A DNA stretch of 64,000 nt, taken from the NCBI GenBank assembly GCA_030390025.1, contig CM059432.1:85190001-85254000 (forward strand), in the 5' to 3' direction. Source of the DNA: Squalus acanthias. Taxonomy: Eukaryota. The translations under genes and the position numbers were made by a program. Shown piece by piece: positions 7,690-60,399 of the stretch. Each line of letters opens with the position of its first letter. Position 1 is the stretch's first letter. The notes below the pieces were generated by a model. It saw only the letters and a list, made by a program, of their open reading frames with translations, was not told the origin of the DNA and did not search any database.

Positions 7690-9889
7690 TGATGAATGGG
7701 AAGACATGAATTGACAGGGACCAATGCAGGGATATGTAAGGGGTGGTTGGTTATTTGCAGGACTGCTTTGTGTCAGTGGCATTGAAGCAGGACGGGAAGA
7801 GTGGCCATTGCATGTGCTTCTGACATTGGTCCACTGGTGCAACCTAAGTAAATCATGTATTAATAAGGGCATCCCTGGCATCCCGGTCAGCAGTGTGAGC
7901 AGCTGGTGGTGCATCGCCCTCAGAACCTTTCTGCTCCTCGTCCTCGTCCTCCTTGGAATCATCTGCAGACGATGCGTACTCTGCACCTTGATCATCCTGC
8001 AGGTCCAAACCTTGCTGTTGTGCAATGTTGTACAGAGCGCAGCACACCACGACCATTCAAGACACCTTTGCTGATACGTATTGAAGGCTGCCTTCAGATC
8101 TTTCTAGGTACCTGAAGCGCATCTTCAGCATGAAGATAGCTTGTTCGATCACACATATGGTGGTCATATGGCATTAATTGTAGCGCAGTTGGGCTTCATT
8201 GGTTTAGTTTCTGAGGGATGCCATCAGGCAAGTTTGAAGTGGGCATCCCTTGACTCCTCGCAGCCACCCCTTAAGTCTGCTTGCAGATCTGAAGACGTCA
8301 GGAAGCTTGGACTGCCGCAGGACGAAAGCATCATGGCAGCTCCCCGGGTATCTTGTGCACACCTGCATAAATATCTCTTGGTGGTTGCACACCAGCTGTA
8401 TATTTAAGTAGAAGCCCTTGTGGTTCACAAATACCCCTGGTTGATCTGGGGGTGCACGGATTGCCACGTGTGTGCAGTCAATAATGCCCTGCACCTGTGG
8501 GAAGCCAGCCAGAGATGCAAAACCGAGCACCCACTCATTCTGACCAGCGTCATCACAGGCAAAGTTCACATAATTGTCGGCCCTGGCATACAACCCATTA
8601 GTCACCTGCATTCCGCATTTGTGGACTGCTGACTGGGAAATCCTGGATATGTCTCTGGCAAAGCCCTGGAAGAATCCGGAAGCTAAAATGTTGACGGCGG
8701 TGGTGACTTTGACAGCCATTGGTAACACGAGGCCACCAGATCTAGCAAGCAGCAGATGTCTGCCACCACCTGACGCAACAACCTAAGGCTCCTGAAACAC
8801 TGTTCGGACATGTCAAGGAAGCTCAGCCTCTTCCTGTATACCCTATGTCACAGGTAGTGCCTCCTGCGAGCTGCTTCCCTCTGCTGCTGCCCTCTCTGTT
8901 GCTCCCCTCTTTGCTGCTCCGCTCTCTGCTGTCCAGCTACAGGTCTCCCAAGAGCAGCTGCTGCAGAGGTCATATTGTTCCTCAACCGAGGTCCAATCTA
9001 AGGCAGCCAAAGTGCCACCCATCCTGCTGTGATTCAGAAAACTTCCAAAGAGTAGAAAGTAAACTCTCAGCAAAAGAAATGTGAACAAACACTTTCCCAC
9101 TAGCAACTAAGTTAGCAACTGAGTACTGAGTATTTATGACAGTATTTCCCTGAGTTTGAATCAAGCCCCTCAATTGCCATTGTGTTCTCGCCTTGCTTTC
9201 ACTGGTGAGTTTCAGGAAGCCTGGGAAACCTGTCAATGCACTGTTAAATTTGAAAGTGAGTTGAAATCTCACTCCAATTGAGCGATTAGCATATGTTAAT
9301 AGGCAACCCAGCTCTCCTGAGTGGGTTGCGCGCAAGCGACAACAACTTTCATTTATATAGCACCTTTAACATAGTAAAACATCCCAATGTGCTTCACAGG
9401 AGCATTATGAAACAAAATTTGACACCGAACCACATAATTAATTATTATTACAGGTGACCAAAAGCTTGGTCAAAGAGATAGGTTTTAAGGAGTATCCTAC
9501 AGGAGGGTAGAGAGGCGGAGAGGTTTAGGGAGCGAATTCCAGAGCTTATGGCTTAGGCAGCTGAAGAAATGGCTGCCAATGGTGGAGCGATTAAAATAGG
9601 GGATGCGCAAGAGGCCAGAATTGGAGGAGTGCAGAGATCTCGGAGGGTTGTAGAGTTGGAGGAGGTTACAAAGATCAGGAAGGATGAGGCCATGGAGGCA
9701 TTCGAAAACAAGGATGAGAATCTTAAATCGAGGCGTTGATGAACTGGGAGCCAAGCAGCCTAACGCGCTCCAGTTAAATGTGGAATTTGGCGGGTTGGAG
9801 CCGGCTTCTCGACGCGCTCACATTTTTGCCGGTTTTTAACCCCCACCCGCACCCAAACTGACATGCTCCTCCAGATTAAAATTCACCCC
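7690..9889 (-). pseudogene. Decayed Harbinger transposon with frameshifted HARBI1-like DDE transposase
   Basis: Fragments AGFPQVQGIIDCTHVAI, YPGSCHDAFVLRQS and VVCCALYNIA; terminus AAAATTCACCCC near 9889. Confidence 0.85.
9337..9752 (-). mobile_element. L2 LINE 3' fragment inserted in the Harbinger
   Basis: FKILILVF...LWNSLPKPLRL; homologous to the L2 at 53970-54938. Confidence 0.8.
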
Positions 9890-16200: not shown

Positions 16201-17600
16201 TGACCCACTCTGCTTATTTTTACCCAAAGCTCTACTCTGCTCTAGAGCCTTGACATTTCTCTTGCTGCTTTTAAATTTACTCTTTCCTAAATCCTCCCAC
16301 CCCCCACCACCCCTTCATTAGTTTAAAGCCCTGTCTACTGCCCTAGTTACTCGGTTCACCAGGACACTGGTCTCAGCATGGTTTAAGTGGAGCCCGTCCC
16401 AACGGAATAGCTCCCTCTTTCCCCAGTACTGGTGCCAGTGCCCCATGAACTGAAACCCCTTCCTCCCACACCACTCTTTGAGCCACGCATTTAAACCTCT
16501 AATCTGTTTGTCCCTATACCAATTTGCGTGTGGCTCAGGTAACAATCCAGAGATTATTACCTTTGAGGTTCTGCTTTTTAATTTGGATCCTAGCTCCTCA
16601 AACTCCCTCAGCAGAACCTCATTCCTAGTTCTACCTATGTTGTTGGTTCCTACGTGGACCATGAGAACTGGATCCTCCCCCTCCCACTCCAAGTTCTTCT
16701 CCAGCTGCGAGGAGATGTCTTTAACTCTGGCACCGGGCAGGCAACACAACCTTCGGAACTCTCGGTCGCGGCTGCAGAGAACAGTATCTATCCCCCTGAC
16801 TATACTGTCCCCTACCACAACTACATTCCCTTTCACTCCCCCCACTTGAATGGCCTCCTGCACCATGGTGCAATGGTCAGCTTGCTCATCCATCCTGCAG
16901 GCTTTTCCCTCATCCACACAGGCAGCAAGAACCTTATACTTGTTGGACAAGGGCAAAGGCTGAGGCTCCTCCAACACTGCACCTGGGATCACCTTACCTA
17001 CCTGAGTTGCAATCACACCCTACTGTCCTTGACCACTAACCAGACCTGTACCACTACCTAACCTAAGGGATGTGACTGCCTCTTGGATCAAAGTGTCCAG
17101 GTAACTCTCCCCATCCCTGATGCCCCGCAATGTCTGCACCTCATACTCCAGCACAAAAACTCTGAGCTGAAGTTCCTCAAGATGCATGCACTTACTGCAA
17201 ACGTGGCTGTCCGGGATCACAATGCTCTCCACAAACTCCCACATGCTGCAGTTGCGGCACACCACCTGCACTGCCAACCCTATATGACCTTGTTTTATTT
17301 AATTAAATTTGTAATTAGGTAACTTAGTTTACAGTGTAGTTTCTTGACTACTTACTTGATCTAGATTAAGTTAAGGGTACTGAAATTAAATATCTACCTG
17401 TAACACAAAGCAATACAAGTAGTGTAGTCAAAAAGCAGCAACTCCTTCCCCCTCTTCTCCAACTTCCTCCTCTTCTCCAAATTCCCACTCTTTCCAAATT
17501 CCCAAATAAAACACATTGTTCAAGTCCACTCCATTTAATCCTGCTCTGTGCTCTGCAGAAATGTTTACTTGTATACACTAGGAGCCTCACCCAATTTACA
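13214..17600 (-). mobile_element. Near full-length decayed CR1 LINE (ORF1 zinc finger plus SGNH esterase; ORF2 APE-RT)
   Basis: ORF1 pieces 17020-17277 (CxxC..HxCxxC) and 16318-17016 (VGDSIVRG...DGLHLN); ORF2 pieces 13700-16227; 3' tail near 13214-13240. Confidence 0.9.
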
Positions 17601-27974: not shown

Positions 27975-29410
27975 GTTAGAATGGGTGGCGCCTTATCTTG
28001 GACCTCGGACGAGGAACAAGATGACCATCAGCAGCAACAACAAACTGCTGTGGAGAGTCCTGCAGATGGTGAGCAGAGAGGGTAGCACTACCTGCGTAAC
28101 AGCATGTACAGGCAGAGCCTCTGCTTCCTTTATCTCTCAGAAGAACAAAGCTTCCGGAGGCTGAGATTGTCATGTCAGATGGTGGCAGACATCTGCAGCC
28201 TCCTTGAAGAACTGCACCCTGTTGGACCCGGTGGTCATGCATTAGCTGTGGCTGTGAAAGTGACCACCGTCCTCAACTTTTTTGCCTCCGGATCCTTCAA
28301 GGGTGCTACCAGAGACATGTCCAGGATCTCCCAGTTGGCTGCATAAGGCGGGTCACTGATGGGTTGTTTGCCAAGGCCAGCAATTATATCAACTTCTCCT
28401 GTGATGACACTAATCAGAATGAGCGGGCGCTTGGGTTTGCGTCTCTGGCTGGCTTCCCGCAGGTGCAAAGTGTCATCGACTGCATATACGTGGCAATCCA
28501 CGCACCTCCAGATCAACCAGGAGTATTCGTAAACCACAAGGGTGCACGTTCCATCATTCCATCACAGTGCAGCTGGTGCACAGCCACAAGAAAAGATTTA
28601 TGCAGGTGTTCATCAGATTCTCAGGGACCTGCCATGATGCTTTCATCCTGCGGCAGTCCAAGCTCCCTGACCTCTTTGGACCTGCAAGCAGAATTAAGGG
28701 TGGCTGCTAGGAGACAAAAAAGAATACCCGTTTGAAACTTGGCTGATGACACCCGTAAGAATCCCAACCAATGAAGCCCAAGAGCGGTACAATGATAGCC
28801 ATATAACAACCAGATGTGTCATTGAGCAAGCGATTGGCATGCTTAAGATGTGCTTCAGGTGCCTGGACAGATCTGGAGGCACCCTTCATTTCTCACCAGC
28901 CAGGGTCTCCAGAATGATCAAGGAGTGCTGCGCTCTACACAACATTGCGTAGCAGTGAAGACTGGAGCTGCAGGAGGAACAAGGCGCTGAGCACATATCC
29001 TTTGCGGATGAAGCAAGGAGGAGGAAGAGGAAGTGGAGGAGGAGGAGGAAGATGGCAACCCCAATGCAGCACCAGTAACTTATACTGCTGCCTGGGATGC
29101 CAGGGGTTCCCTTATAGATGTAAGGTTTGGTTAGTTATCACCACTGGACCGATGTAACAACCACATCTCATCCACCCCCAACCCAATCCCACTCACACAA
29201 AGCATTCCTGCAACCAACCAACCAACCATTGCACAGTCCCCGCTTTGGTCCCCGTCAATTCCTGTCTTCCCATTCATCAACAAGCAACTGAAAAGATGAG
29301 TTGACTCCCAGCAACTAAGAAGGGAAACACGGGAAAGTGGTGCAAAGTAATAAATTTTAAGTAATTCTACTAAAGAATGGAAGTTAACAACATCACATTT
29401 TCTCATACAC
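27975..29410 (+). pseudogene. Harbinger DDE transposase pseudogene; the element resumes after the CR1 at ~33975-34210
   Basis: [36 protein letters not shown] and CCALHNIA. Segment 33975-34210 matches the Myb-gene 3' end seen at ~23790-24050. Confidence 0.85.
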
Positions 29411-29629
29411 CCAGTGTCGGGAGCGGAGAGAGCAGCAGCACAGTGCGTAGTTAAACTCACTTTCGCGGGCTTTTTTGCAGAGGCCAGTGTCAGGAGTGGA
29501 GAGAGCAGCAGCACAGTGAGTATTTAAACTCACTTTCGCGGGCTTTTTTTCAGAGGCCAGTGGCGGGAGCGGAGAGAACAGCAGCACAGTGAGTAGTTAA
29601 ACTCACTTTCGCGGGCTTTTTTTCAGAGG
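29411..29629 (+). repeat. 3 x 73-bp tandem monomers at the CR1 5' end
   Basis: Units start at 29411, 29484 and 29557 (CCAGTGTCGGGAGCGGAGAG...TTTCGCGGGCTTTTTT.CAGAGG). Confidence 0.9.
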
Positions 29630-29938
29630 CTTACCAATCTCACAGACCGGCGGCGGCGTTCCAGAGCCACGTCACAATTCAAAAAGTGACGCGGACAAAA
29701 GGAAGCAGCTGATTGGGTGAGTACTGTCAGGTGAGTATTTATACTACTCTGTAGTTTGACAGGTAAGGTTAATAGTTTATAAAGTTTAGTAGGTCCTAAT
29801 TTTTGTGGTTATAGTTCCTAAGGTCTCTGTTGTGTAGCAGGGAGTGCTAGTATACAAGGGCCCTTGAGTATATCATTTAATTGTAGTGTAATTTGTGGTA
29901 TTGATTTGAGTTAATTTAAATTAATTAAAGGATAAGTC

Positions 29939-30889
29939 ATGGCAGCACAGCTCAGCCCCATGGCATGCTCCTCCTGCACTATGTGGGAAATCAGGGACAC
30001 TTCCTGTGTCCCTGTTGACCATGTGTGCGGGAAGTGTATCCAGCTGCAGCTACTGGCAGACCGCATTGCGGCGCTGGAGCTGCGAATGGATGCACACTGG
30101 AGCATTCGCGATGCTGAGGACATCGTGGATAGCACGTTTAGGGAGTTGGTCACACCGCAGGTAAAGGCTGCACAAGCAGGAAGGGAATGGGTGACCACCA
30201 GGCAGAGTAGTAGGCGCAGGCAGGTAGTGCAGGGATCCCCTGTGGACATCCCCCTCTCAAACAGATATACCACTTTGGATATTGTTGAGGGAGATGGCTT
30301 ATCGGGGGAAGGCAGCAGCAACCAACTTCCTGGCACCATGGGTGGTTCTGCTGCACAGGACGGGAGGAAAAAGAGCGGGAGAGCTATAATGATAGGGAAT
30401 TCTATTGTAAGGGGAATAGATAGGCGTTTCTGCGGCCGCAAACGAGACTCCAGGATGGTATGTTGCCTCCCTGGTGCAAGGGTCAAGGATATCTCGGAGC
30501 GGCTGCAGGGCATTCTGGAGGGGGAGAGTGAACAGCCAGTTGTCGTGGTGCATATAGGTACCAACGATATAGGTAAAAAATGGGATGAGGTCCTAAAAGC
30601 TGAATATAGGGTGTTAGGAGGTAAATTAAAAAATAGGACCTCAAAGGTAGTAATCTCAGGATTGCTACCGGTGCCACGTGCTAGTTAGAGTAGAAATAGA
30701 AGGATATTTCAGATGAATACATGGCTAGAGGAATGGTGCAAGGGGGAGGGATTCAAATTCCTGGGACATTGGAACTGGTTCTGGGGGAGGTGGGACCAGT
30801 ACAAACTGGACGGTTTGCACCTGGGCAGGACCGGGACCGATGTCCTAGGGGGAGTGTTTGCTAGTGCTGTTGGGGAGGGTTTAAACTAA
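29939..30889 (+). pseudogene. CR1 ORF1 (zinc finger/leucine zipper plus SGNH esterase), one premature stop at 30686-30688
   Basis: CSSCTMW...HVCGKC, IGNSIVRG and HIGTND; the frame resumes to DGLHL...VGEGLN* as in the intact paralog at 39652-40602. Confidence 0.9.
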
Positions 30890-33873
30890 AATGGCAGGGG
30901 GTTGGGAACCTGTGCAGGGAAACAGAGGAAAGGGAAGCAAGGATAGAAGCAAAAGACAGGAAGGAGAAAAGCAAAAGTGGAAGGCAGAGAAATCAAGGGT
31001 GTAAATCAAACAGGGCTACAGTAAATAATAATTCTAAAAGGACTAAGAGTGTTAAAAAAACAAGCCTGAAGGCTTTGTGTCTTAATGCGAGGAACATTCG
31101 TAATAAGGTGGATGAATTAGCTGCGCAAATAGATGTAAACGGATATGATATAATTGGGATTACGGAGACATGGCTCCAGGGTGACCAAGGCTGGGAATTC
31201 AACATCCAGGGGTATTCAATATTCAGGAAGGACAGACAAAAAGGAAAAGGAGGTGGGGTAGTATTGCTGGTTAAAGAGGAGATTAACACAATAGTAAGGC
31301 AGGATATTAGCTGTGATGATGTGGAATCTGTATGGGTAGAGCTGAGAAATACCAAGGGGCAGAAAACGTTAGTGGGAGTTCTATACAGACCCCCAAACAG
31401 TAATGCTGAGGTTGGGGATGGCATTAAACAGGAAATTAGAGATGCGTGCAATAAGGGCACAGCAGTTATCATGGGTGACTTTAATCTACATATAGATTGG
31501 GCTAACCAAATTAGTAACAATACTGTGGAGGAGGAATTCCTAGAGTGTATACGGGATGGTTTCCTGCACCAATATGTCGAGGAACCAACTAAAGATCAGG
31601 CCATCTTAGACTGGGTATTATGTAATGAGAAAGGATTCATTAGCAATCTTGTTGTGCGAGGCCCCTTGGGGAGGAGCGATCATAATATGATAGAATTCTT
31701 CATTAAGGTGGAGAGTGAAGTAGTTAACTCAGAGACTAGGGTCCTGAATTTAAATAAAGGAAACTACGATGGTATGAGGCGCGAGTTGGCTAGGGTGGAT
31801 TGGGGAGCATTACTTAAAGGGTTGACGGTGGATAGGCAATGGCAAACATTTAAAGATCGCATGGATGAACTACAGAATTTGTTCATCCCTGTTTGGCATA
31901 AAAATAAAAGAAAAAAGTTGACTCAACCGTGGCTAACAAGGGAAATTAGGGATAGCATAAGATCCAAGGAGAGGACATATAAATTGGCCAGAAAAAGCAG
32001 CAAACCTGAAGATTGGGAGCTGTTTAGGATTCAGCAAAGGAGGACAAAGGGATTAATTAAGAGGGGGAAAATAGAATATGAGAGTAAGCTTGCTGGGAAC
32101 ATAAAAACTGACTGTAAAAGCTTCTATAGATATGTGAAGAGAAAAAGATTGGTGAAGTCAAGAGTAGGTCCCTTGCAGTCAGAATCAGGGGAATTTATAA
32201 TGGGGAACAAAGAAATGGCTGATGAATTAAATACATACTTTGGTTCTGTCTTCACAAAGGAGGACACAAATAAACTCCCAGAGATGTCGGGGAATATAGG
32301 GTCTGATGAGAGGGAGGAATTGAATGAAATCAGTATTTGTAGGGAAATGGTGTTAGGGAAATTGACGGGATTGAAGGCCGATAAATCCCCAGGGCCTGAT
32401 AATCTACATCCTAGGGTACTTAAGGAAGTGGCCCTAGAAATAGTAGATGCATTGCTGGTCATCTTTCAAAATTCTATAGACTCTGGAACAGTTCCCATGG
32501 ATTGGAGGGTAGCTAATGTAACCCCACTATTTAAAAAAGGTGGTAGAGAAAAAATGGGGAATTATAGACCAGTAAGCCTGACATCAGTAGTGGGCAAAAT
32601 GCTAGAGTCCATTATAAAAGATGTAATAGCAGTGCACTTGGAAAACAGTGACAGGATCGGACAAAGTCAACATGGATTTACAAAAGGGAAATCATGCCTG
32701 ACTAATCTACTGGAATTTTTTGAGGATGTAACTGGTAGAATAGCTAAGGGAGAACCAGTGGATGTGGTGTATTTGAACTTTCAGAAGGCTTTCGATAAGG
32801 TCCCGCCTAAGAGATTAGCGTGCAAAGTTAAAGCACATGGGATTGGGGGTAAGGTACTGATTTGGATAGAGAACTGGTTGGCAGACAGGAAGCAAAGAGT
32901 TGCAATAAACGGGTCTTTTTCCGAGTGGCAGGCAGTGACTATTGGGGTACCACAGGGATCGGTGCTAGGACCCCAGCTATTCACAATATATATTAATGAT
33001 CTAGACGAGGGAACTAGATGTAATATCTCTAAGTTTGCAGACGACACAAAGCTGGGTGGGCGTGTGTGCTGTGAGGAGGATGCAGAGAAACTCCAGTATG
33101 ATTTGGACAGGTTGGGTGATTGGGCAGATGCATGGCAGATGCAGTATAATGTGGATAAATGCGAGGTTATCCACTTTGGTGGCAAAAACAGGAAGACAGA
33201 TTATTATCTGAACGGCAATAGATTGGGAAAAGGGGAAGTGCAACGAGATCTGGGAGTCCTTGTGCACCAGTCGCTGAAGGTAAGCATGCAGGTGCAGCAG
33301 GCGGTTAAGAAGGCAAATGGTATGTTGGCCTTCATAGCGAGAGGATTCGAGTACAGGAGCAAGAATGTCTTGCTGCAGTTGTACAGGGCCTTGGTGAGAC
33401 CACACCTTGAGTATTGTGTGCAGTTTTGGTCGCCTTATCTGAGGAAGGATGTTCTTGCCATGGAGGGAGTGCAGCGAAGATTTACCAGACTGATACCTGG
33501 GATGGCAGGAATGATGTATGAAGAGAGATTGGGTCGATTAGGCTTATATTCGCTAGAGTTTTGAAGAATGAGAGAGAATCTCATTGAAACTTATAAAATT
33601 CTAACAGGACTAGACAGACTAGATACAGGAAGGATGTTCCCAATGGCGGGGGAGTCCAGAACCAGAGGTCACAGTCTAAGGATAAGGGGTAAGCCATTTA
33701 GGACTGAGATGAGGAGGAATTTCTTCACCCAGAGAGTGCTGAACCTGTGGAATTCTCTACCACAGAAGGCAGTTGAGGCCAATTCATTAAATATATTCAA
33801 GAAGGAGATAGATATATTTCTTAAGGCTAAAGGGCTCAAGGGATATGGGGAGAAAGCAGGGACAGGGTACTGA
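30880..33873 (+). pseudogene. CR1 ORF2 (APE endonuclease plus reverse transcriptase), one premature stop at 33562-33564
   Basis: LNARNI, ITETWL, GDFN, SDHN, QGSVLGP and FADD. The frame is open from 30880 with no ATG until 31471. Confidence 0.92.
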
Positions 33874-34229
33874 AGTTGGATGATCAGCCATGATCTCATT
33901 AAATGGCGGAGCAGGCTCGAGGGGCCGAATGGCCTACTCCTGCTCCTATCTTCTATGCTTCTATGCTTCTATGCATGTGCATACCCTTGTGCAATTACAA
34001 AGCTTTACTCTTTTTCCTATCGCTCCTGGTGATGCAACGCCTGTGGCTTTAGCCGAGGCAGGGGCAGGCTGCTCAGATCCCTGCTCTGACTGCTGAGATG
34101 CTCTTGGCTGACATGACGGCCCTGCTAAAGACTGCTCCACCTTTACCTGTGCAGGGTATTCAGCAGAGAAGTATGTTGTGTACTGTCTGAGTAGGGGTGG
34201 GGGCAACGGGGCTCAGGAAACTGCCCAGT

Positions 34230-35017
34230 GAAATGAAGGCGAGATTGAGCTGCAGTTCAGGTGGGTATTTAACTTGTCATTGCCCCATCTGAATAAAAGT
34301 TCATTTATTACAGCTGGTGCCTCAGTTCTCTGTGGCAGACATTCGGCAGAGAGTTCTTGTGTTGATATAGCTTTTTCTAACTTTGGAGGCTTTCAAAGTG
34401 ACAAGATCAGGATGGGAGGCGCATTGGATGCATTTGACAGTACCTCAGAAGAGGAAGACCATCACCAGCCACGGCAGCGATGACATGCTGTGGTGGGATA
34501 AGTACGTGCACAGGAGGGAGGTGCACCGGAGAGAGGTGCACAGGAGGGAGGTGCACAGGAGGGAGGTGCACAGGAGAGAGGTGCACAGGAGGGAGGTGCA
34601 CCGGAGGGAGGTGCACAGGAGAGAGGTGCAAAGGAGAGAGGTGCACAGGAGGGAGGTGCACAGGAGGGAGGTGCACCGGAGAGAGGTGCACAGGAGGAAG
34701 GTGCACAGGAGGGAGGTGCACCGGAGAGAGGTGCAAAGGAGAGAGGTGCACAGGAGGGAGGTGCACAGGAGGGAGGTGCACAGGAGGGAGGTGCACCGGA
34801 GAGAGGTGCACAGGAGAGCGGTGCACAGGAGGGAGGTGCACAGGAGAGAGGTGCACAGGGGAGAGGTGCACAGGAGAGGAGCTGAAGTCGCAGGAGGCAC
34901 TATCCAAATAACAGTGCCTGCAGGCAGAAGCTCAGCTTCCTTAACCTCTCAGAAGAGCAGAGCTTCTGCAGGCTTAGGTTGTCACATCAGGTGGTGGCAG
35001 ACATCTGCAGACTCATA
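34230..35017 (+). mobile_element. Harbinger transposase 5' fragment
   Basis: [19 protein letters not shown]...RQKLSFLNLSEEQ...RLRLSHQVVADIC, homologous to ~27980-28200 and to the reverse complement of ~8750-9025. Confidence 0.7.
34506..34880. repeat. 15-bp minisatellite (GTGCACAGGAGRGAG), ~25 units
   Basis: Direct inspection; it explains the VHRRE, CTSLL and CTGGR ORFs. Confidence 0.95.
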
Positions 35018-39651: not shown

Positions 39652-40602
39652 CTAGTTTAAACCCTCCCCAACAGCACTAACAAACCTCCCCGTGAGAATA
39701 TTGGTCCCGGCTCTGTTGAGGTGTAACCCGTCCGGCTTGTACAGGTCCCACCTTCCCCAGAAATGGTCCCAATGCCTCAGGAATCTAAAGCCCTCCCTCC
39801 TGCACCATCTCTCCAGCCACGCATTCATCTGTTCTATCCTCCTATTTCTGTACTCACTATCACGTGGCACCGGGAGTAATCCGGAGATTACTACCTTTGA
39901 AGTCCTGCTTTTTAATCTCTCTCCTAGCTCCCTAAACTCTGCCTGCAGGACCTCATCCCTCTTTCTGCCAATGTCATTGGTACCGATATGGACAACGACC
40001 TCTGGCTGTTCACCCTCCCCCCTCAGAGTGTCCTGCAGCCGCTCAGTGACATCCTTGACCCTGGCACTAGGGAGGCAACATACCATCGTGGAGTCACGTC
40101 TGTGGCCGCAGAAACTCCTGTCTGCTCCCCTAACTATTGAATCCCCTACCACTATTGCTCTTGCACTCTTTTTCCTCCTCCCCTGTGCATCTGAGCCACC
40201 CGTGGTGCCGTGGTCTTGACTTTGGCTGCACTCTCCAGAGGAACCATCGCCCTCACCAGTACTCAGAACAGAATACTGGTTGGAGAGCGCGATGCACTCC
40301 AGGGACTCCTGCACTACCTGCCAGGTCCTCCTCTTCTGACTGGCGGTCACCCATTCCCCCTCTGCCTGCATACTTTTAAGCTGCGGGGTGACCACCTCTA
40401 GAAACGTGCTATCCACGTAACTCTCCACCTCGCAGATGCACCGCAGTGACTCCAGACGCCGCTCAAGCTCCGAAACCCGGAGCTCGTGTTGCAGTAGCTG
40501 GCAACACTTCCCGCACATGTGGTTATCCAGGCTACGTGAAGCGTCTAGGACTTCCCACATAGCACAGGATGTGCACTCCATGGAACTGAGCTGCCCTGCC
40601 AT
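39652..40602 (-). CDS. CR1 ORF1 protein (zinc finger/leucine zipper plus SGNH esterase), uninterrupted, 316 aa
   Basis: CTSCAMW..HMCGKC, VVGDSIVRG, HIGTND and DGLHLN. Confidence 0.85.
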   Translation of the reverse strand: MAGQLSSMECTSCAMWEVLDASRSLDNHMCGKCCQLLQHELRVSELERRLESLRCICEVESYVDSTFLEVVTPQLKSMQAEGEWVTASQKRRTWQVVQESLECIALSNQYSVLSTGEGDGSSGECSQSQDHGTTGGSDAQGRRKKSARAIVVGDSIVRGADRSFCGHRRDSTMVCCLPSARVKDVTERLQDTLRGEGEQPEVVVHIGTNDIGRKRDEVLQAEFRELGERLKSRTSKVVISGLLPVPRDSEYRNRRIEQMNAWLERWCRREGFRFLRHWDHFWGRWDLYKPDGLHLNRAGTNILTGRFVSAVGEGLN

Positions 40603-47260: not shown

Positions 47261-47492
47261 CCGAGATTAATGCACACCAGCCACTCGCATGTTGTTTTCC
47301 TTGCAGCTTCCACAATGGAAGGAGCTGTGTGAAGGGATCACCCTGTACGGGTTTCATTTTTAAAGTGTTCTAAATATTATTAATTTATTATTTTATATTT
47401 ATTCAACCCGGAATAGCTGATTTAATGTTGTTATATTTATTATTGTTACTCTTAAAAAAACAAATCACTGATTTGCTGTAGTCGATCTGCCC

Positions 47493-48071
47493 ATGGCTGA
47501 AAAGATCCCAACGGGAATGGCTAAGAAAGCATCCCGATCCACAACCTCCCTTCCCCCGGAGCCCATGGAGATCATCAGGAGCAAGGCTTGTTCCAGAAGG
47601 GTAAAAATCAACGTTGGGGGACTTAACCACGAAGTCTTGTGGAGGACATTGGAAAGGTTACCCCGGACTCGTTTGGGGAAACTGAGGGATTGCAACACTC
47701 ACGAATCCCTGTTGGAGACCTGCGATGATTATAACCTCGATGAAAACGAGTACTTTTTTGATCGCCACCCGGGGGCTTTCACGTCAATTTTGAATTTCTA
47801 CCGCACTGGGAAATTGCACATGATGGAAGAGATGTGCGCGCTCTCCTTCGGCCAGGAACTCGATTACTGGGGGGTTGATGAGATCTACTTGGAGTCCTGC
47901 TGCCAAGCCAGATACCACCAAAAAAAGGAGCAAATGAACGAGGAACTGAGGCGTGAAGCTGAGACCATGAGGGAGAGAGAATGCGAAGAGTTTGATAACT
48001 CGTGCTGTCCCGATAAAAGGAAGAAGTTGTGGGATCTGCTCGAAAAACCCGGCTCGTCAGTGGCCGCTAAG
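47493..48071 (+). CDS. KCNB2: Voltage-gated potassium channel Kv2.2, first coding exon (N-terminus and T1/BTB domain, 193 codons)
   Basis: MAEK...[19 protein letters not shown]...[24 protein letters not shown]...[10 protein letters not shown]...[22 protein letters not shown], then donor AAG|GTAAGG. Residues VKIN, LNHE, GKLH, FGQE and CCPDK match KCNB2 rather than KCNB1 (from recall). Confidence 0.95.
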
Positions 48072-50369
48072 GTAAGGTGCTGATGGGCTTCCCCATAAAG
48101 AGACACAGTCGGCTTGATCCTTTCACCAGCACAGACTTGCAGGCATACTCTGAATGAAATAAACCTAAATTTCAGTTTACACTTTTAATTGAGTCACTAT
48201 TAAAAATGTAAAATCATTGGAGTTTTAAATTGTTAAATTTCTGAACCATTTGCCATTGCGTATTAACCAAGTCGTCAGTTCAAACGAATGACAGGGACAG
48301 CGCCGAAGCCTGTTGTCATGGTGATTTGACGGCTTGTAAATATTACTTGTGCTGTTTGCAATATTTAATACTTTAAATGGAGACGACGCAGACTTTTATG
48401 GGAAGGTTAGAAAAGTTAAAGTATGTCGATAGGATTCATGTGACAGTTTTGAATACTGCAAGGAACACGATATGTTTGTGTAATTGTATGGTTTACGATT
48501 CATAATCAGACCATCTGTGTTTTTCATTATCAGAGGATAAAACTTAAAACTCGAGCACAATTTCAGATTCGTTGCGGCGGTAATAACCGAATCTCTCTGG
48601 GTGGAAACAATCTATTATAATAACCTAAAGGATTGATGGAATGAGGACGAGGCGATTAAACTTGTTGGGTGTTTCATTGTGCACTTTACCATTCTAGCGC
48701 AAAACCAAATCGGTCGGTTTACGATTTGTTCGCCGTCTTCAGAAAACAGTTTTATTACCTCTCCTTAAGTGTTCCCATTGAGGAATTCCGTTTGGAGTAT
48801 TCACTGCCTGTTTATTTTGCCTTGTTTCTTGCTTCGCTAACCTCCGCCCCCGTAAAAAGAGAAACCAACACACAAGAAACCAAGGATTCTGTTCCACAAG
48901 AATGATATATTTTGGGCGATTCTTCATGAGAATATCATCTAGAATTAAAATTAGAATTTCATAATATTTAGGAATCGAATCTGGATCATTATAATAATTA
49001 AAGTACATAATTTCACACATTTTCCTATTTTGGTTTAAAGTCACACTAAGCAGATACTACTAAATGGACCAATACAATATTATTCAAATAGTCAATGATT
49101 GTTAGTTATTACAGCAATGCTAAGTACAAATGAACATTTTCTCTGTGTTCCCTAAAGTAGGCACTTGATTGCTTCCCGCCTCTTACTGAACAAAAAATGT
49201 AGAATGAATGCCTAATGAAAAAGAACCCTCAGAAGAAGTCTGGAAATAAAGGAAAGTTCCAACTAATTTGCCGCTATAGTTAAGCTCTACCTCTTCGCTT
49301 GATTTAAACAGAGCAAAATGCAAGGGGGAGGGGGCACAGGTAACACTCTCTTGGTTTGTAGTACACTCCTTTTCTTAATTTCTTCATAGACAAACTGTCA
49401 GTGACTTTCTCCATTTCTGCAATGCAATATCTCAACTCGCATTTCTCCAGCTCTGCAATGCATTGTTTCAATACCATTCTTTCATCTCTGCAACACTCTA
49501 AAGCTGTAGTTATATTGCATGAGTGTTCTGCCAACAGTAGCTGCAGAGTGCGATTCACAACTGGCAACACTCCTGTTATGTTACTTGGCTGACAATTATG
49601 TCATGGCCAACAGGAGGTAGCTCAGAGCAGTTTGCTGGCAGATTTTTAAAAATGTTTTAACAGCACAGATGGTAGCATTTGCTTTCTCAAAACACTCAAA
49701 ACAAACTGCTTAAGTTTCTATAGTGCCTAGAAGGCCCAACTTACTGCCAGAACAATCCATTTTGATACTCCATTGGAATTATACTCCATATGTGTCAAGC
49801 CCAAGTGGAAACTGTCGTGCAGTGATACAAAAATGACAGTATAACTGCACCCCAAGGCTGCAGTTATTTTGCAGCTAACAGTTCAAAATTATTATCTGTG
49901 AAGTGCATTGCACAGCCCCTAGCCCAGAGTTGTGTTGTCAGTTGTGCGTCCAGCCAGATCTCAATAAAGTCAACCATAAAGGAGCTCTGCATAAACGTTT
50001 TTTTGTGTGGATGTGCGGAGCTCTGCTCACAGGACTGCTCATTTTTAATGTTAGGAGAGCAGGTGGTGCCTTCTTTCATAACATTAAAAATATTCCTTAC
50101 AACATTTTAAAATGCAGCTTTGCACCAAGCTGGGGTTATACTGCAGCTGATGCAAACTCTAACCTGTGTGAGACAGCCTCCTGGTGGTGTCTCACACTGC
50201 TTGGCTTTAGTGTGCTCTGGTCTCAAAATGGAATCTCGTATCCAAGTTTATACTTTTGTATTGATGGTTACCCAAAACCGCTTCACATCAACATCAAACT
50301 GGCAGTATTACTGTAGCCTAGCTCACTTGATGTACCAGGAGCTTTTGTGTCAGTTCCTTAACTTTCTTC

Positions 50370-53969: not shown

Positions 53970-54938
53970 AGCAACAACAACAACAACACCTTGTATTTAT
54001 ATAGTGGCTTTAACGTAGTAAAACGTCCCAAGGCACTTCACAGGAGTGTTATAAGTCAAAAAATTGACACTGAGCCACATAAGAAATTAGGGCAGATGAC
54101 CAAAAGCTTGGTCAAAGAGGTAGGTTTTAAGGAGCGTCTTAAAGGAGGAAAGAGAGGTAGAGAGGAGGAGAGGTTTAGGGAGGGAGTTCCAGAGCTTGGG
54201 GCCTAGGCAGCTGAAGGCACGGCCATCGATGGTTGAGCGATTATAATCAGGGATGCTCAAGAGGTCAGAATTTGAGGAGCACAGATATATCGGGGGGTTG
54301 TGGGGCTGAAGGAGATTACAGAGATAGGGAGGGGAGAGGTCATGGAGGGATTTGAAAACAAGGATGAGAATTTTGAAATCAAGGTGTTGCTTAACTGGGA
54401 GCCAATGTAGGTCAGCAAGCATAGGGGTGATGGGTGAACGTGACCTGGTGCGAGTTAGGACATGGGCAGCTGAGTTTTGGATGACCTCAAGTTTACGCAG
54501 GGTAGAATGTGGAAGGCCAGCCAGGAGTGCATTGGAATAGTCAAGTCTAGAGGTAACAAAGGCATGGATGAGGGTATCAGCAGCAGATGAGCTGAGGCAG
54601 GAGCAGAGACGGGCAATGTTACGGAGGTGAAAATAGGCGGTCTTAGTTATGCCACGGATATGTGGTCGGAAGCTCATTTCAGGGTCAAATATGACACCAA
54701 GGTTGCGAACAGTCTGATTCAGCCTCAGACAGATGCTAGGGAGAGGGATGGAGTCGGTGGCTAGGGAACCGATTTTGTGGCGGGGCCCGAAGACAATGGC
54801 TTCGGTCTTCCCAATATTTAATTGGAGAAAATTTCTGCTCATCCAGAACTGGATGTCAGACAAGCAGTGTATCAATTTAGAGACTGTGGAGGGGTCGAGA
54901 GAAGTGGTGCTGAGGTAGAGCTGGGTGTCGTCAGCATA
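53970..54938 (-). mobile_element. L2 LINE 3' portion (RT C-terminus)
   Basis: YADDTQLYLS, FLQLNIGKTE, SRLDYSNALLAGLP and LHWLPV; (GTT)n tail. Confidence 0.9.
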
Positions 54939-55102
54939 CTTCTTCTTCTTCTTAGGCAGTCCCTCGGGACCGAGGATGACTTGCTTCCACATTAAAAATG
55001 AGTTCTCAGGTGACTGATGAGTCCAATGCGGGACCTACAGTCTCTGTCACAGGTGGGGCAGACGGTGGTTGAAGGAGCAGGTGGGTGGGGTGCTTGGGTT
55101 GA
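54939..55102 (-). mobile_element. RTE-clade LINE 3' end
   Basis: Minus strand encodes CPTCDRDCRSRIGLISHLRTH (terminal C2H2-like motif), then a short UTR and (AAG)n tail. Confidence 0.7.
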
Positions 55103-57962: not shown

Positions 57963-59769
57963 CTGTATTTTGCCCAATATCTAACTATACAGTAATATGA
58001 CTCAAGGGTGGAATAATAGAACCCCCCTTTGTGATGTCAAGTCTTTCACACATGCCCTCATGTGTGCTTTTATAATCTTTCCAAAGGTGGACTGAGAAAG
58101 ATTTAGTAAAACGAGGCCAGGAATGAATTGTTAGCTGTTTATTTTACAGTCAGCAAGTGAATGTACAAAGTAACAGTCAAAACTAATGCCAGTTACTTCA
58201 CTCAATCTCTCTTTTCTCCTAGACAAGTAGAGAAAAAAACTATGTGCTCTTTTGTGGGCTAACTTACTAGCTTCCAGCTCTTGCCAAGACTGACCTTCAT
58301 AATTCTTTGTTCAAAACCTCGCTGCCCACGAACATGGATTTTCCCTTTTTGTTAATTCTGACCCCAGGAAGTAGGGGAGGTTGGTGTCTCACTAGGCCTG
58401 TCAAATAAACCGACTACTCCCTCTCCCAACAAGAGTATATTCTTAGCAGGCACTTCATGCCATGACCACATGAATAGAATCGTCCTCACCAGAATGGAAG
58501 TAAATATTTGTAGATCATCTGTCATTATGGAGACCAATTAATGGCTAGTTCATTAATACCTCAAGCACCCCACTGTCACAGTGCTGTAGCCCAGTGATGT
58601 CCAATATAAATTGTTGACTAGGCGCAGGTGTGACTACAGCGGCATAAGTTTAGCCAAATGCACTAATTTTAGTAGAAAACATACACTCACACAATGCAGG
58701 TAAGTATATTTTACGTGTGTATATTTACTAAACAAACACGTAGCACCCGTCAGTAAGCAAGGAAGTAAAACACTCCTAACGATCAAAAACCATTCGCATA
58801 ATCTTCATTTTCATTTTGTTATTTTACCAACAAACGCACAAAAACATTAAAATGCACATGCATATGTCATGAGAATATGAGTATTGAGATCACATGCGCA
58901 ATGATGGTGTCTATTACAATTTTTTATTTACTAATTAGCAATGCAATTAGCCACATCTGGATTCCCAATTAGTTACATGTAGCGAGTGGCTAATGTATTG
59001 GACAGCACTGCAATAACTGGTGACTTTTTTAACCTTGTGAATACACATTTTTTTTTGAACACAACATATAGATATAAATTGTTCCTAAGTCTATTCTGTA
59101 AAAAAACGTTCTAAACATGCTAAAGCATGACGGTTATGTACTTTGCACTAATCTGAAACCATTTGAAATAATGATTTGGTTTATGAGGAAATTGACTTTG
59201 TAAGTACTGGTATGAAGCTTGCAGATTTTGATTTATTGGATTATCATAGCAACAACACAGAAAAAGTATGAATTATGGGATCTTTGCTGTATACATAATT
59301 TATAAAAAGCTTTCATTTATAAATGTTATTGTTAGCATAGTATGTCTTGATTTATTTATTAATGTTTATCTCTTTATTAAATAAGATTATAACATGTTTA
59401 TGTTGGTCAGTACATCTTGTTGAGTTGAGTCACAGCGCTTGGACTTATTTTAAATGAACATCTTTTATGCTATGGCCCCAAAATTCCACAGGAGTTCTAC
59501 AAGGTTTCCTGTCATAACTTTGGCAACAACTTTGGCGTGGGTCCTAGACAGCTGAAGGCACGTCTGCCAATGTTAGGATGAAAGAGGGGGGGGGGAGCGG
59601 AAGCACAAAAGGTGAAAGTTAGATGAACGGAGTGTTCTGGGAGGGTTATAAGGCTGGAGGATGTTACAGAGATAGGGGAGGGTGAGGCCATGAAGGGATT
59701 TAAACACCTTGATGAGAATTTTAAGTTTGAGCAGTTGGGTGACTGGGTGCCAATATATGTTAGTAAGGA

Positions 59770-59987
59770 TACGATAGCAAAATACTGCGGATGCTGGAAA
59801 TCTGAAACAACAACAGAAAACGCTGGAAAAACTCAGCAGGCCAGGCAGCATCCGTGGAGAGAGAAAGAGAGTTAACGTTTCAGGTCGATGACCTTTCGTC
59901 AGAACTGTGAAGAGCCGGAAATCAAATAGATTTAAGGCCAGAGTAAAGCTGGGAAAAGGGGGAGGGGATAAAAGAACAAAGGGGGAG
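59770..59987 (-). mobile_element. Penelope-type terminal insert
   Basis: 13-bp TSD ATGTTAGTAAGGA (59757-59769, 59988-60000); contains a hammerhead motif. Confidence 0.75.
59870..59906 (-). ncRNA. Minimal type I hammerhead ribozyme
   Basis: AGUU-CUGACGA-A-AGGUC-auc-GACCU-GAAA-CG-UU-AACU: stem I AGUU/AACU, stem II AGGUC/GACCU, palindromic stem III AACGUU. Confidence 0.75.
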
Positions 59988-60399
59988 ATGTTAGTAAGGA
60001 CACGGGTGATGGGTGAGCAGGACTTGGTGACGGATAGGATACAGGCAGCAGAGTTTTGGTTGAGCAGAAGTTTATGGAGGGTGGAGAATGAGAGGCCAGC
60101 CAGGAGAGCATTAGAATAGTCGAGTCTAGAAGTAACAGGGGCCTGGATGAGAGTTTCAGCGGCAGATGGGCTGAGTCAGGTGCAGAGGTAGGTGATGTTA
60201 TGGAGGTGGAAGTAGGCTGTCTTTGTGACGGAGAGCATATGGGGTTGAAAGCTCACCTCAGGGTCAAATGGGACACTGCAATTGCAAACATTCTGGTTCA
60301 GACAATAACCAGGGAGGAGGATGGAATCAGTGGTCACGTTACCGAGTTTGGCTACAGTTGAATAGGTAACATTGGCAGGAGACTGGCAGAACCTTCAAG

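Follow-up and report, generated by a model that had tools for sequence, protein, structure and literature searches.

For the second open reading frame (ORF2) of long interspersed nuclear elements (LINEs), translation is usually modeled on the reinitiation of L1 and SART1. According to a review, a -1 frameshift is needed for ORF2 of TRE5-A and TRE3-A, which are L1-clade LINEs of Dictyostelium (PMC5911963), and either a +1 shift or reinitiation has been suggested for Paramecium LINEs (PMC5405496). CR1-group elements have been described as the dominant retrotransposons of most vertebrates (PMC13343379). We analyzed a stretch of 64,000 nucleotides (nt) from the shark Squalus acanthias (GenBank assembly GCA_030390025.1, contig CM059432.1, positions 85,190,001 to 85,254,000 of the forward strand), referred to here as the window, which contains a full-length CR1-type LINE at 29411-33974 (+). 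Like the canonical vertebrate CR1 LINEs described in PMC13343379 and PMC4120745, it has an esterase ORF1, an ORF2 with an apurinic/apyrimidinic-type (APE) endonuclease and a reverse transcriptase (RT), and an 8-nt 3′ repeat. Conservation at the ORF1-ORF2 junction suggests that esterase-type CR1 LINEs are likely to make their ORF2 protein by programmed -1 ribosomal frameshifting, giving an ORF1-ORF2 fusion. The features of the element and of the two other CR1 junctions in the window are as follows.

29411 to 29630 (+): 5′ region of three tandem 73-nt units (Tandem Repeats Finder, 93% matches), putative 5′ untranslated region
29939 to 30889 (+): ORF1, 316 codons, with an N-terminal CxxC..CxxC, an SGNH esterase (PF13472), and the end G-L-N-stop
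30686 to 30688 (+): premature TAG inside ORF1
30862 to 30864 (+): TAG closing the -1 frame, five codons 5′ of the heptamer
30865 to 33873 (+): ORF2 in the -1 frame, APE endonuclease and RT, with its natural stop at 33871-33873
30880 to 30886 (+): slippery heptamer T_TTA_AAC in the phase of ORF1 (from sequence and conservation)
30886 to 31080 (+): basic, weakly conserved linker in the -1 frame, ending at the endonuclease motif LNARN (31081)
30887 to 30889 (+): ORF1 stop TAA, directly 3′ of the heptamer
30893 to 30906 (+): G-tract GG-CA-GGGGG-TT-GGG, candidate 3′ stimulator, overlapping a family-specific hairpin at 30894-30915
33562 to 33564 (+): premature TGA inside ORF2
33941 to 33974 (+): 3′ terminal 8-nt tandem repeat, without poly(A)
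39655 to 39661 (-): second CR1 junction, identical heptamer, followed by TAG
16321 to 16327 (-): third CR1 junction, of a divergent A-L-N-stop group, identical heptamer, followed by a TAATG stop-start

An earlier reading of the window made from its letters alone (the sequence-only reading) had proposed a correctly phased slippery site joined to an open -1 frame, and both parts were confirmed: the TTA of TTTAAAC is in phase with the ORF1 ATG at 29939 and is followed, after AAC, by TAA, and the -1 frame is open from 30865 into the endonuclease (PF03372; E value, 8e-12) and the RT (PF00078; E value, 3e-28). ORF1 has a profile match to the ZfL2-1 esterase (4c1b; E value, 6e-42), and ORF2 and a swallow gene model with CR1-type ORF1 and ORF2 parts share 37% identity across 618 columns. 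The nearest relatives of the ORF1 proteins of this 3.7-Gb genome are shark and ray proteins, and the window junction is, by eye, nearly identical to shark and ray rows labeled CR1 in the PMC13343379 supplement. With one premature stop in each ORF, the window copy is dead.

Under the proposed mechanism, most ribosomes would end ORF1 at the stop directly after U_UUA_AAC. A minority, slowed by this stop codon and by the G-tract 7 to 10 nt downstream, would slip back one base, with tRNA-Leu moving from UUA to UUU and tRNA-Asn from AAC to AAA, and would read CUA next. The shifted ribosomes would then continue via the basic linker into the endonuclease and RT, and the predicted product, an ORF1-ORF2 fusion, would have about 1,310 residues (316 + 995 in window-copy coordinates) and be made at a low fixed ratio to the ORF1 protein (ORF1p). 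The slip itself, the fusion protein, and the roles of the G-tract and the stop are the putative parts of this scheme.

Junctions were collected with a search pattern for the esterase motif that lies about 60 nt upstream, with the heptamer excluded, which gave 24,007 matches in the genome. The first 100 matches listed, all within the first 6.7 Mb of one contig, gave a junction sample of 99 rows, in which two sequence-identical copies were merged and one junction was counted twice. Together with 30 copies of a young family, the 99 rows formed 14 families of at least two copies each and 12 singletons. The exact heptamer is present in 83 of the 99 rows, with 12 rows one base off and 4 rows two or more bases off; these heptamer-independent rows and the two other window junctions match the proposed site more often than chance would allow. 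Judged by each family's most frequent codon, the final Leu is encoded by TTA in all 14 families. It is preceded by GCT, GGT, or GAT, codons for three amino acids with T always in the third position, while the T-ending share of upstream Gly, Ala, and Asp codons is 167/535. Asn is encoded by AAC in 12 families (the other two are tied, with two scored copies each), and the ORF1 stop lies directly 3′ of the heptamer in all 14, as TAA in 10 and TAG in 4. Synonymous variation of the preceding T and of TTA was thus not found across the families. With one real copy taken per family, six other conserved ORF1 Leu columns use three to five codons each, TTA accounts for 30 of the 201 Leu codons in ORF1 tails, and a single codon is kept in 3 of 24 conserved upstream columns of fourfold or sixfold degeneracy; the median pairwise identity of the ORF1 tails is 68%. 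Genome-wide, Gly-Leu-Asn-stop is retained at 8,779 junctions of the window's group; 8,208 of them have the exact heptamer, and the remaining ones look like scattered single changes. On these sequence comparisons, the heptamer site is under constraint beyond the need of the protein.

The site was also found in published consensus sequences of other species. In the PMC13343379 supplement, covered as the first 400 letters of each consensus, TTTAAACTA has 23 matches, of which 17 are at the ORF1 end (by eye) and 6 elsewhere, and the labels of the 17 rows read as alligator, saltwater crocodile, bullfrog, coelacanth, bowfin, elephant shark, two rays, two sharks, and one teleost. As a heptamer-independent control, supplement rows were found by the upstream motif, and 3/3 of them carry the site. 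Five synonymous variants and a TG-stop variant gave none at the ORF1 end among the 17 of 68 matches listed. In an unselected slice of 16 supplement rows, the ORF1 end is visible in two, one of which has the site. The ORF1 proteins of a lizard, a turtle, and a swallow end in R-A-L-N.

More distant ORF1 proteins were compared as 143 cluster representatives at 50% identity, 97 of which have an intact esterase end. A terminal tripeptide compatible with a slippery heptamer is present in 61 of the 97, versus a background of 3.6%; by type, these are U_UUA_AAC in 50 (a count inflated by a search profile derived from Leu-Asn-ending proteins) and G_GGA_AAC in 9 and A_AAA_AAC in 2 (counts that the profile does not favor). 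Six further representatives have x-Lys-Asn at one fixed offset and then 10 to 12 more codons. The residue before Leu-Asn has codons ending only in pyrimidines in 27 cases versus only in purines in 1, and the residue before Gly-Asn has codons ending only in purines in 8 cases versus only in pyrimidines in 0. The Gly-Asn and Lys-Asn swaps and the covarying preceding residue appear to fit G_GGA_AAC and A_AAA_AAC as these heptamers require; both heptamer types are used in retroviruses. Leu-Asn remains terminal though it lies 25, 26, 27, 32, or 39 residues from the catalytic motif. It is absent in 5/6 DGxHP-type ORF1s and in the solved ZfL2-1 esterase, and therefore the esterase fold does not need it. 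Atlas neighbors of the Gly-Asn and Lys-Asn proteins are eukaryotic clusters, mostly of Chordata. No CR1 was found in viral contigs, in which two loci gave weak esterase matches without an ORF2 match, none of the 32 loci from a metagenome pattern scan had an ORF2 match, and no CR1 relatives were found in prokaryote genomes, plasmids, or phages.

Three proteins (P0073, P0074, and P0070) form an esterase ORF1 family with an apparent SH3 domain, and gene calls join them to a CR1-type endonuclease; the SH3 assignment is based on PF14604, PF00018, and PF07653 on P0073, with no Pfam match on P0074, and close relatives such as P0069 end in Y-L-N. Two database proteins are mislabeled: P0008, a shark- or ray-like CR1 ORF1, is named as a Pseudomonas aeruginosa SGNH hydrolase, probably through contamination, and P0011, also a CR1 ORF1, is listed as an isoform of sawfish 40S ribosomal protein S24.

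The endonuclease is in the -1 frame relative to ORF1 in 66 of 91 scorable copies, and in the families that can be scored, -1 is the commonest or the clean-linker state. Clean linkers measure 138, 153, 168, 177, 183, 195, 201, 204, 210, 216, and 267 nt, all multiples of 3. In copies not selected for being stop-free, the linker is free of stops in the -1 frame in 56 of the 66 in-frame copies and in the other frames in 0 and 2 of 66. A Trp/Cys-Gln-Gly-x-Gly block 3′ of the site is conserved in the -1 frame in 10 of the 14 families. On the 5′ side, a stop usually closes the -1 frame 5 codons before the heptamer and, in family 5, 1 codon before it; family 8 has it open for 37 codons. Because the -1 frame is closed 1 to 5 codons before the heptamer, upstream initiation of ORF2 is excluded in such families. 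Of 20 young-family copies selected for an intact ORF1, 13 have 990 to 999 open -1 codons counted from the heptamer. The presence and phase of the site, the constraint on it beyond the protein, and the open -1 linker are plain in the sequence itself. Ray protein P0035 continues from ORF1 through G-F-K-L to the linker, a run-on expected of an indel copy, and a weak search for longer proteins that fuse ORF1 and ORF2 gave no match.

Family 5 was considered as a counterexample, since the endonuclease is in frame 0 in 4 of its 8 sampled copies, with an 8-nt G run, and was resolved into variants of G-run length. Genome-wide, 77 of 100 listed copies have a 7-nt run, which places the endonuclease in -1. 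When 30 copies were taken, 24 were scorable, and their frames split 9/7/8 because the family is old; its five clean -1 linkers all lack an ATG. The 8-nt run occurs in 4/4 family-5 copies within the first 5.3 Mb of one contig versus 4/96 of the other listed copies, perhaps a locally amplified ORF2-defective source. The very young family comprises more than 100 near-identical intact ORF1 copies and many intact ORF2s, and CR1 has probably been active recently in this shark.

The sequence-only reading had placed a G-rich hairpin after the heptamer. In the window copy, CAGG does begin 8 nt after the heptamer and the hairpin at 30894-30915 folds (-10 kcal/mol; z, -2.4), but a conserved hairpin was rejected: z scores run from -2.0 to +2.4 and are near or below -2 only in the window's family, 1 of 14. 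The conserved feature is instead the G-tract. A run of at least four G begins 7 to 10 nt 3′ of the heptamer in 14/14 families and ranks in the top 0.1 to 7% of each element's windows by G4Hunter score, and crocodilian and ray consensus rows show, by eye, five G, one or two bases, and at least three G at the same 10-nt spacing. At the two Gly positions of the tract, GGG is used in 19/20 Gly codons (ten families of the window's group) versus 98/278 in the endonuclease, a preference that points to constraint at the RNA level. The tract has two long G runs and would form a two-tier G-quadruplex (G4) at most, which is predicted in 6 of the 14 families and in one copy with an expanded G run. Candidate stimulators are therefore a two-tier quadruplex, a G-tract bound by a protein, or delayed termination at the stop next to the heptamer. 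Taken with the comparisons across species, we lean toward the wider view that the -1 site is ancestral and clade-wide in esterase-type CR1, from sharks to crocodilians and probably in birds and beyond vertebrates, that it has been swapped among U_UUA_AAC, G_GGA_AAC, and A_AAA_AAC, and that it is stimulated by the G-tract (as a two-tier quadruplex or a protein-binding site) and the adjacent stop, not by a stem-loop.

Under termination-reinitiation, the ribosome would restart one base back, with or without an AUG, or at a nearby linker ATG, releasing a free ORF2 protein as in SART1 and L1, and the heptamer would be a termination-site signal or a relic. Start codons bear directly on this. The claim that ORF2 lacks an ATG, made from the window alone, stands for the window copy, in which the first -1-frame ATG (31471) is 130 codons past the LNARN at 31081, but not as a general rule: only 5 of the 14 families and 21 of the 56 stop-free copies lack any ATG ahead of the endonuclease. 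In the other 9 families, an in-frame ATG precedes the endonuclease or lies at its start, which favors reinitiation; these include the youngest family, with an ATG at codon 17 in 29/29 copies, and one family (8/8 copies, including window 16321-16327) with the exact UAAUG stop-start described for SART1 (PMC3708506), which also places ORF2 in -1. The stop directly after the heptamer in every family favors reinitiation as well. In the window's own family, codon 31012-31014 is AGG in the window copy and ATG in 13 of 22 in-frame copies, and three read sets carry the same G-to-T difference there. L1 ORF2 reinitiation is said, in work by Alisch from 2006, to proceed without an AUG. In the families that have one, the linker ATG is at codon 4, 17, 19, 20, 24, 44, 45, or 58-59, with no conserved place, a scatter such as an ordinary linker with an occasional Met would give. 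The UAAUG overlap is limited to 1/14 families and 9/95 copies and is absent from the window copy at 30880-30889; in the remaining families, the codon overlapping the stop is AAA, AAG, ACT, ATT, ATA, AAT, GCT, or GTT. Moreover, reinitiation leaves unexplained the fixed TTA, the T preceding it, the slippery-type swaps, and the ORF1s that run 10 to 12 codons past x-Lys-Asn. We regard it as unlikely, and frameshifting and reinitiation could coexist in the families with an ATG.

The seven bases might instead be fixed by protein constraint and codon bias, through Leu-Asn at the esterase end and Phe-Lys-Leu at the ORF2 start; ORF2 would then come from a separate RNA, a spliced RNA, or internal initiation. 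Two overlapping coding frames would fix the heptamer bases, A-rich LINE strands favor codons of the Phe-Lys-Leu type, and the conserved Trp/Cys-Gln-Gly-x-Gly block agrees with coding in the -1 frame. This explanation is very improbable given the esterases without Leu-Asn and the -1 frame, which is closed 1 to 5 codons upstream and without a start codon in most families, so that only ribosomes arriving from ORF1 could read Phe-Lys. The element is covered by three probable RNA assemblies and by one DNA run, and no ORF1-ORF2 GT-AG joint and no insertion at the site was seen among the rows listed, weak evidence in that repeat contigs cannot show absence. Least probable of the explanations weighed is transcriptional slippage or editing, by which an extra base at T3A3 or the G run would put ORF1 and ORF2 in one frame in some RNAs. 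The G run does vary: in one family, 23 of 100 listed copies depart from the 7-nt mode. Against this reading, T3A3 is a short tract for a polymerase to slip on, reverse transcription of RNAs carrying an extra base would leave in-frame fusions in the genome, one-base heptamer insertions are not a class among the 99 junction rows, and the phase and X_XXY_YYZ form match ribosomal slippage. Programmed -1 frameshifting, with its ORF1-ORF2 fusion, had been suggested from the window, and the constraint, the frame, and the heptamer-type swaps in distant ORF1 proteins support it.

Several further observations weigh against -1 frameshifting in CR1 or against its wide occurrence. The slip is inferred from sequence conservation. 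The families share ancestry, so family counts are not independent trials; despite this, synonymous sites a few codons from the heptamer changed repeatedly in the same families. The endonuclease is in another frame in 25/91 copies, which we read as post-insertion indels, often in G runs. Neither an Rfam match downstream of the heptamer nor a long-range or pseudoknot partner of the G-tract at a position common to the 14 families was found. Most of the PMC13343379 supplement rows were picked by the heptamer itself, the only bird row there with a visible ORF1 end is a noisy eagle consensus without the last C, and the same nine letters occur inside bird ORF2 simply as Phe-Lys-Leu codons (PMC4316615 supplement). 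Among the distant proteins, 36 of the 97 have no compatible tripeptide at the end, the Leu-Asn count is inflated as stated, and the Gly-Asn and Lys-Asn families are known from protein sequence alone.

Beyond the junction, a TTAAAC motif is present in each 73-nt 5′ unit (29411-29630), with one full TTTAAAC at 29523, and TTTAAACTA also lies 5′ of ORF1 in two published dogfish-labeled CR1 consensus rows (PMC13343379 supplement). Elsewhere in the window, a coding exon at 47472-48080 (+) encodes a potassium-channel BTB/T1 domain (PF02214; E value, 4e-32) and reads like the start of what we take to be a Kv2-type channel; the CR1 element ends about 13.5 kb upstream of it. Remnants of Harbinger-type DNA transposons lie at 1200-1862 and 8204-8782 (-) and at 28208-28735 (+), with Myb/SANT (PF13873) and DDE_Tnp_4 (PF13359) matches, the third piece being assigned by likeness only. 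A 15-nt tandem repeat of 25 copies occupies 34506-34881, with several frames open. RT C-terminal fragments of another LINE, unlike the CR1 copies, are at 54087-55034 and 59573-60175 (-), the first without a Pfam match.

If CR1 ORF2 is made by frameshifting, the active CR1 enzyme would be an ORF1-ORF2 fusion, ORF2 annotations that begin at the first ATG would be wrong, calls of "intact" CR1 copies should span the slip site, and CR1 retrotransposition assays with ORF2 alone would use the wrong protein. Since the ZfL2-1 esterase is a phospholipid-binding protein that has been compared to Gag (PMC3905857), the fusion would be expected to anchor the enzyme to ORF1p multimers in the manner of Gag-Pol. 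If the wider view also holds, the CR1 reverse transcriptase would be a Gag-Pol-like fusion tethered to a membrane-binding esterase multimer. A very abundant natural chromosomal -1 frameshift site would be added to those known, possibly with a natural G-tract stimulator.

A literature search that had the original CR1 descriptions and Repbase/Dfam outside its scope found no proposal of frameshifting for CR1. In the parts covered, the main texts of PMC13343379 and PMC4120745 lack the word "frameshift," and their passages on these elements do not address ORF2 translation; likewise, the covered parts of these two papers, PMC2734521, PMC3905857, and PMC3708506 do not use it in the translational sense, those of PMC4255032 use it only for broken copies, and the first 300,000 of the 449,034 characters of PMC5009743 contain no CR1. 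Frameshifting by -1 is thus a known mechanism that is apparently new for CR1. With the -1 sites of retroviruses, LTR (long terminal repeat) retrotransposons, and coronaviruses, which combine X_XXY_YYZ with a 3′ stimulator (PMC5009743), CR1 shares a phased U_UUA_AAC at a gag-like/pol-like junction and an ORF2 in -1. Unlike these systems, CR1 is a non-LTR element, its overlap is about one to seven codons, and it has only a G-tract, with no conserved stem-loop or pseudoknot found. TRE5-A and TRE3-A differ from CR1 in clade and kingdom, and the passages of the review give neither a slippery site nor an experiment. CR1 shares a bicistronic LINE RNA with SART1 and L1, and the SART1 UAAUG overlap occurs in one shark CR1 family (PMC3708506); unlike in SART1, the overlapping AUG is missing in 13 of the 14 shark families, whereas the heptamer is kept in all. 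In reporters, G-quadruplexes placed 6 to 8 nt 3′ of UUUAAAC, the best spacing, stimulate -1 shifts (PMC3919603). Those reporters are engineered constructs with three-tier quadruplexes, whereas the CR1 tract is two-tier at most, and in the window copy the first GG of the tract begins after 6 nt, within the reporters' best range.

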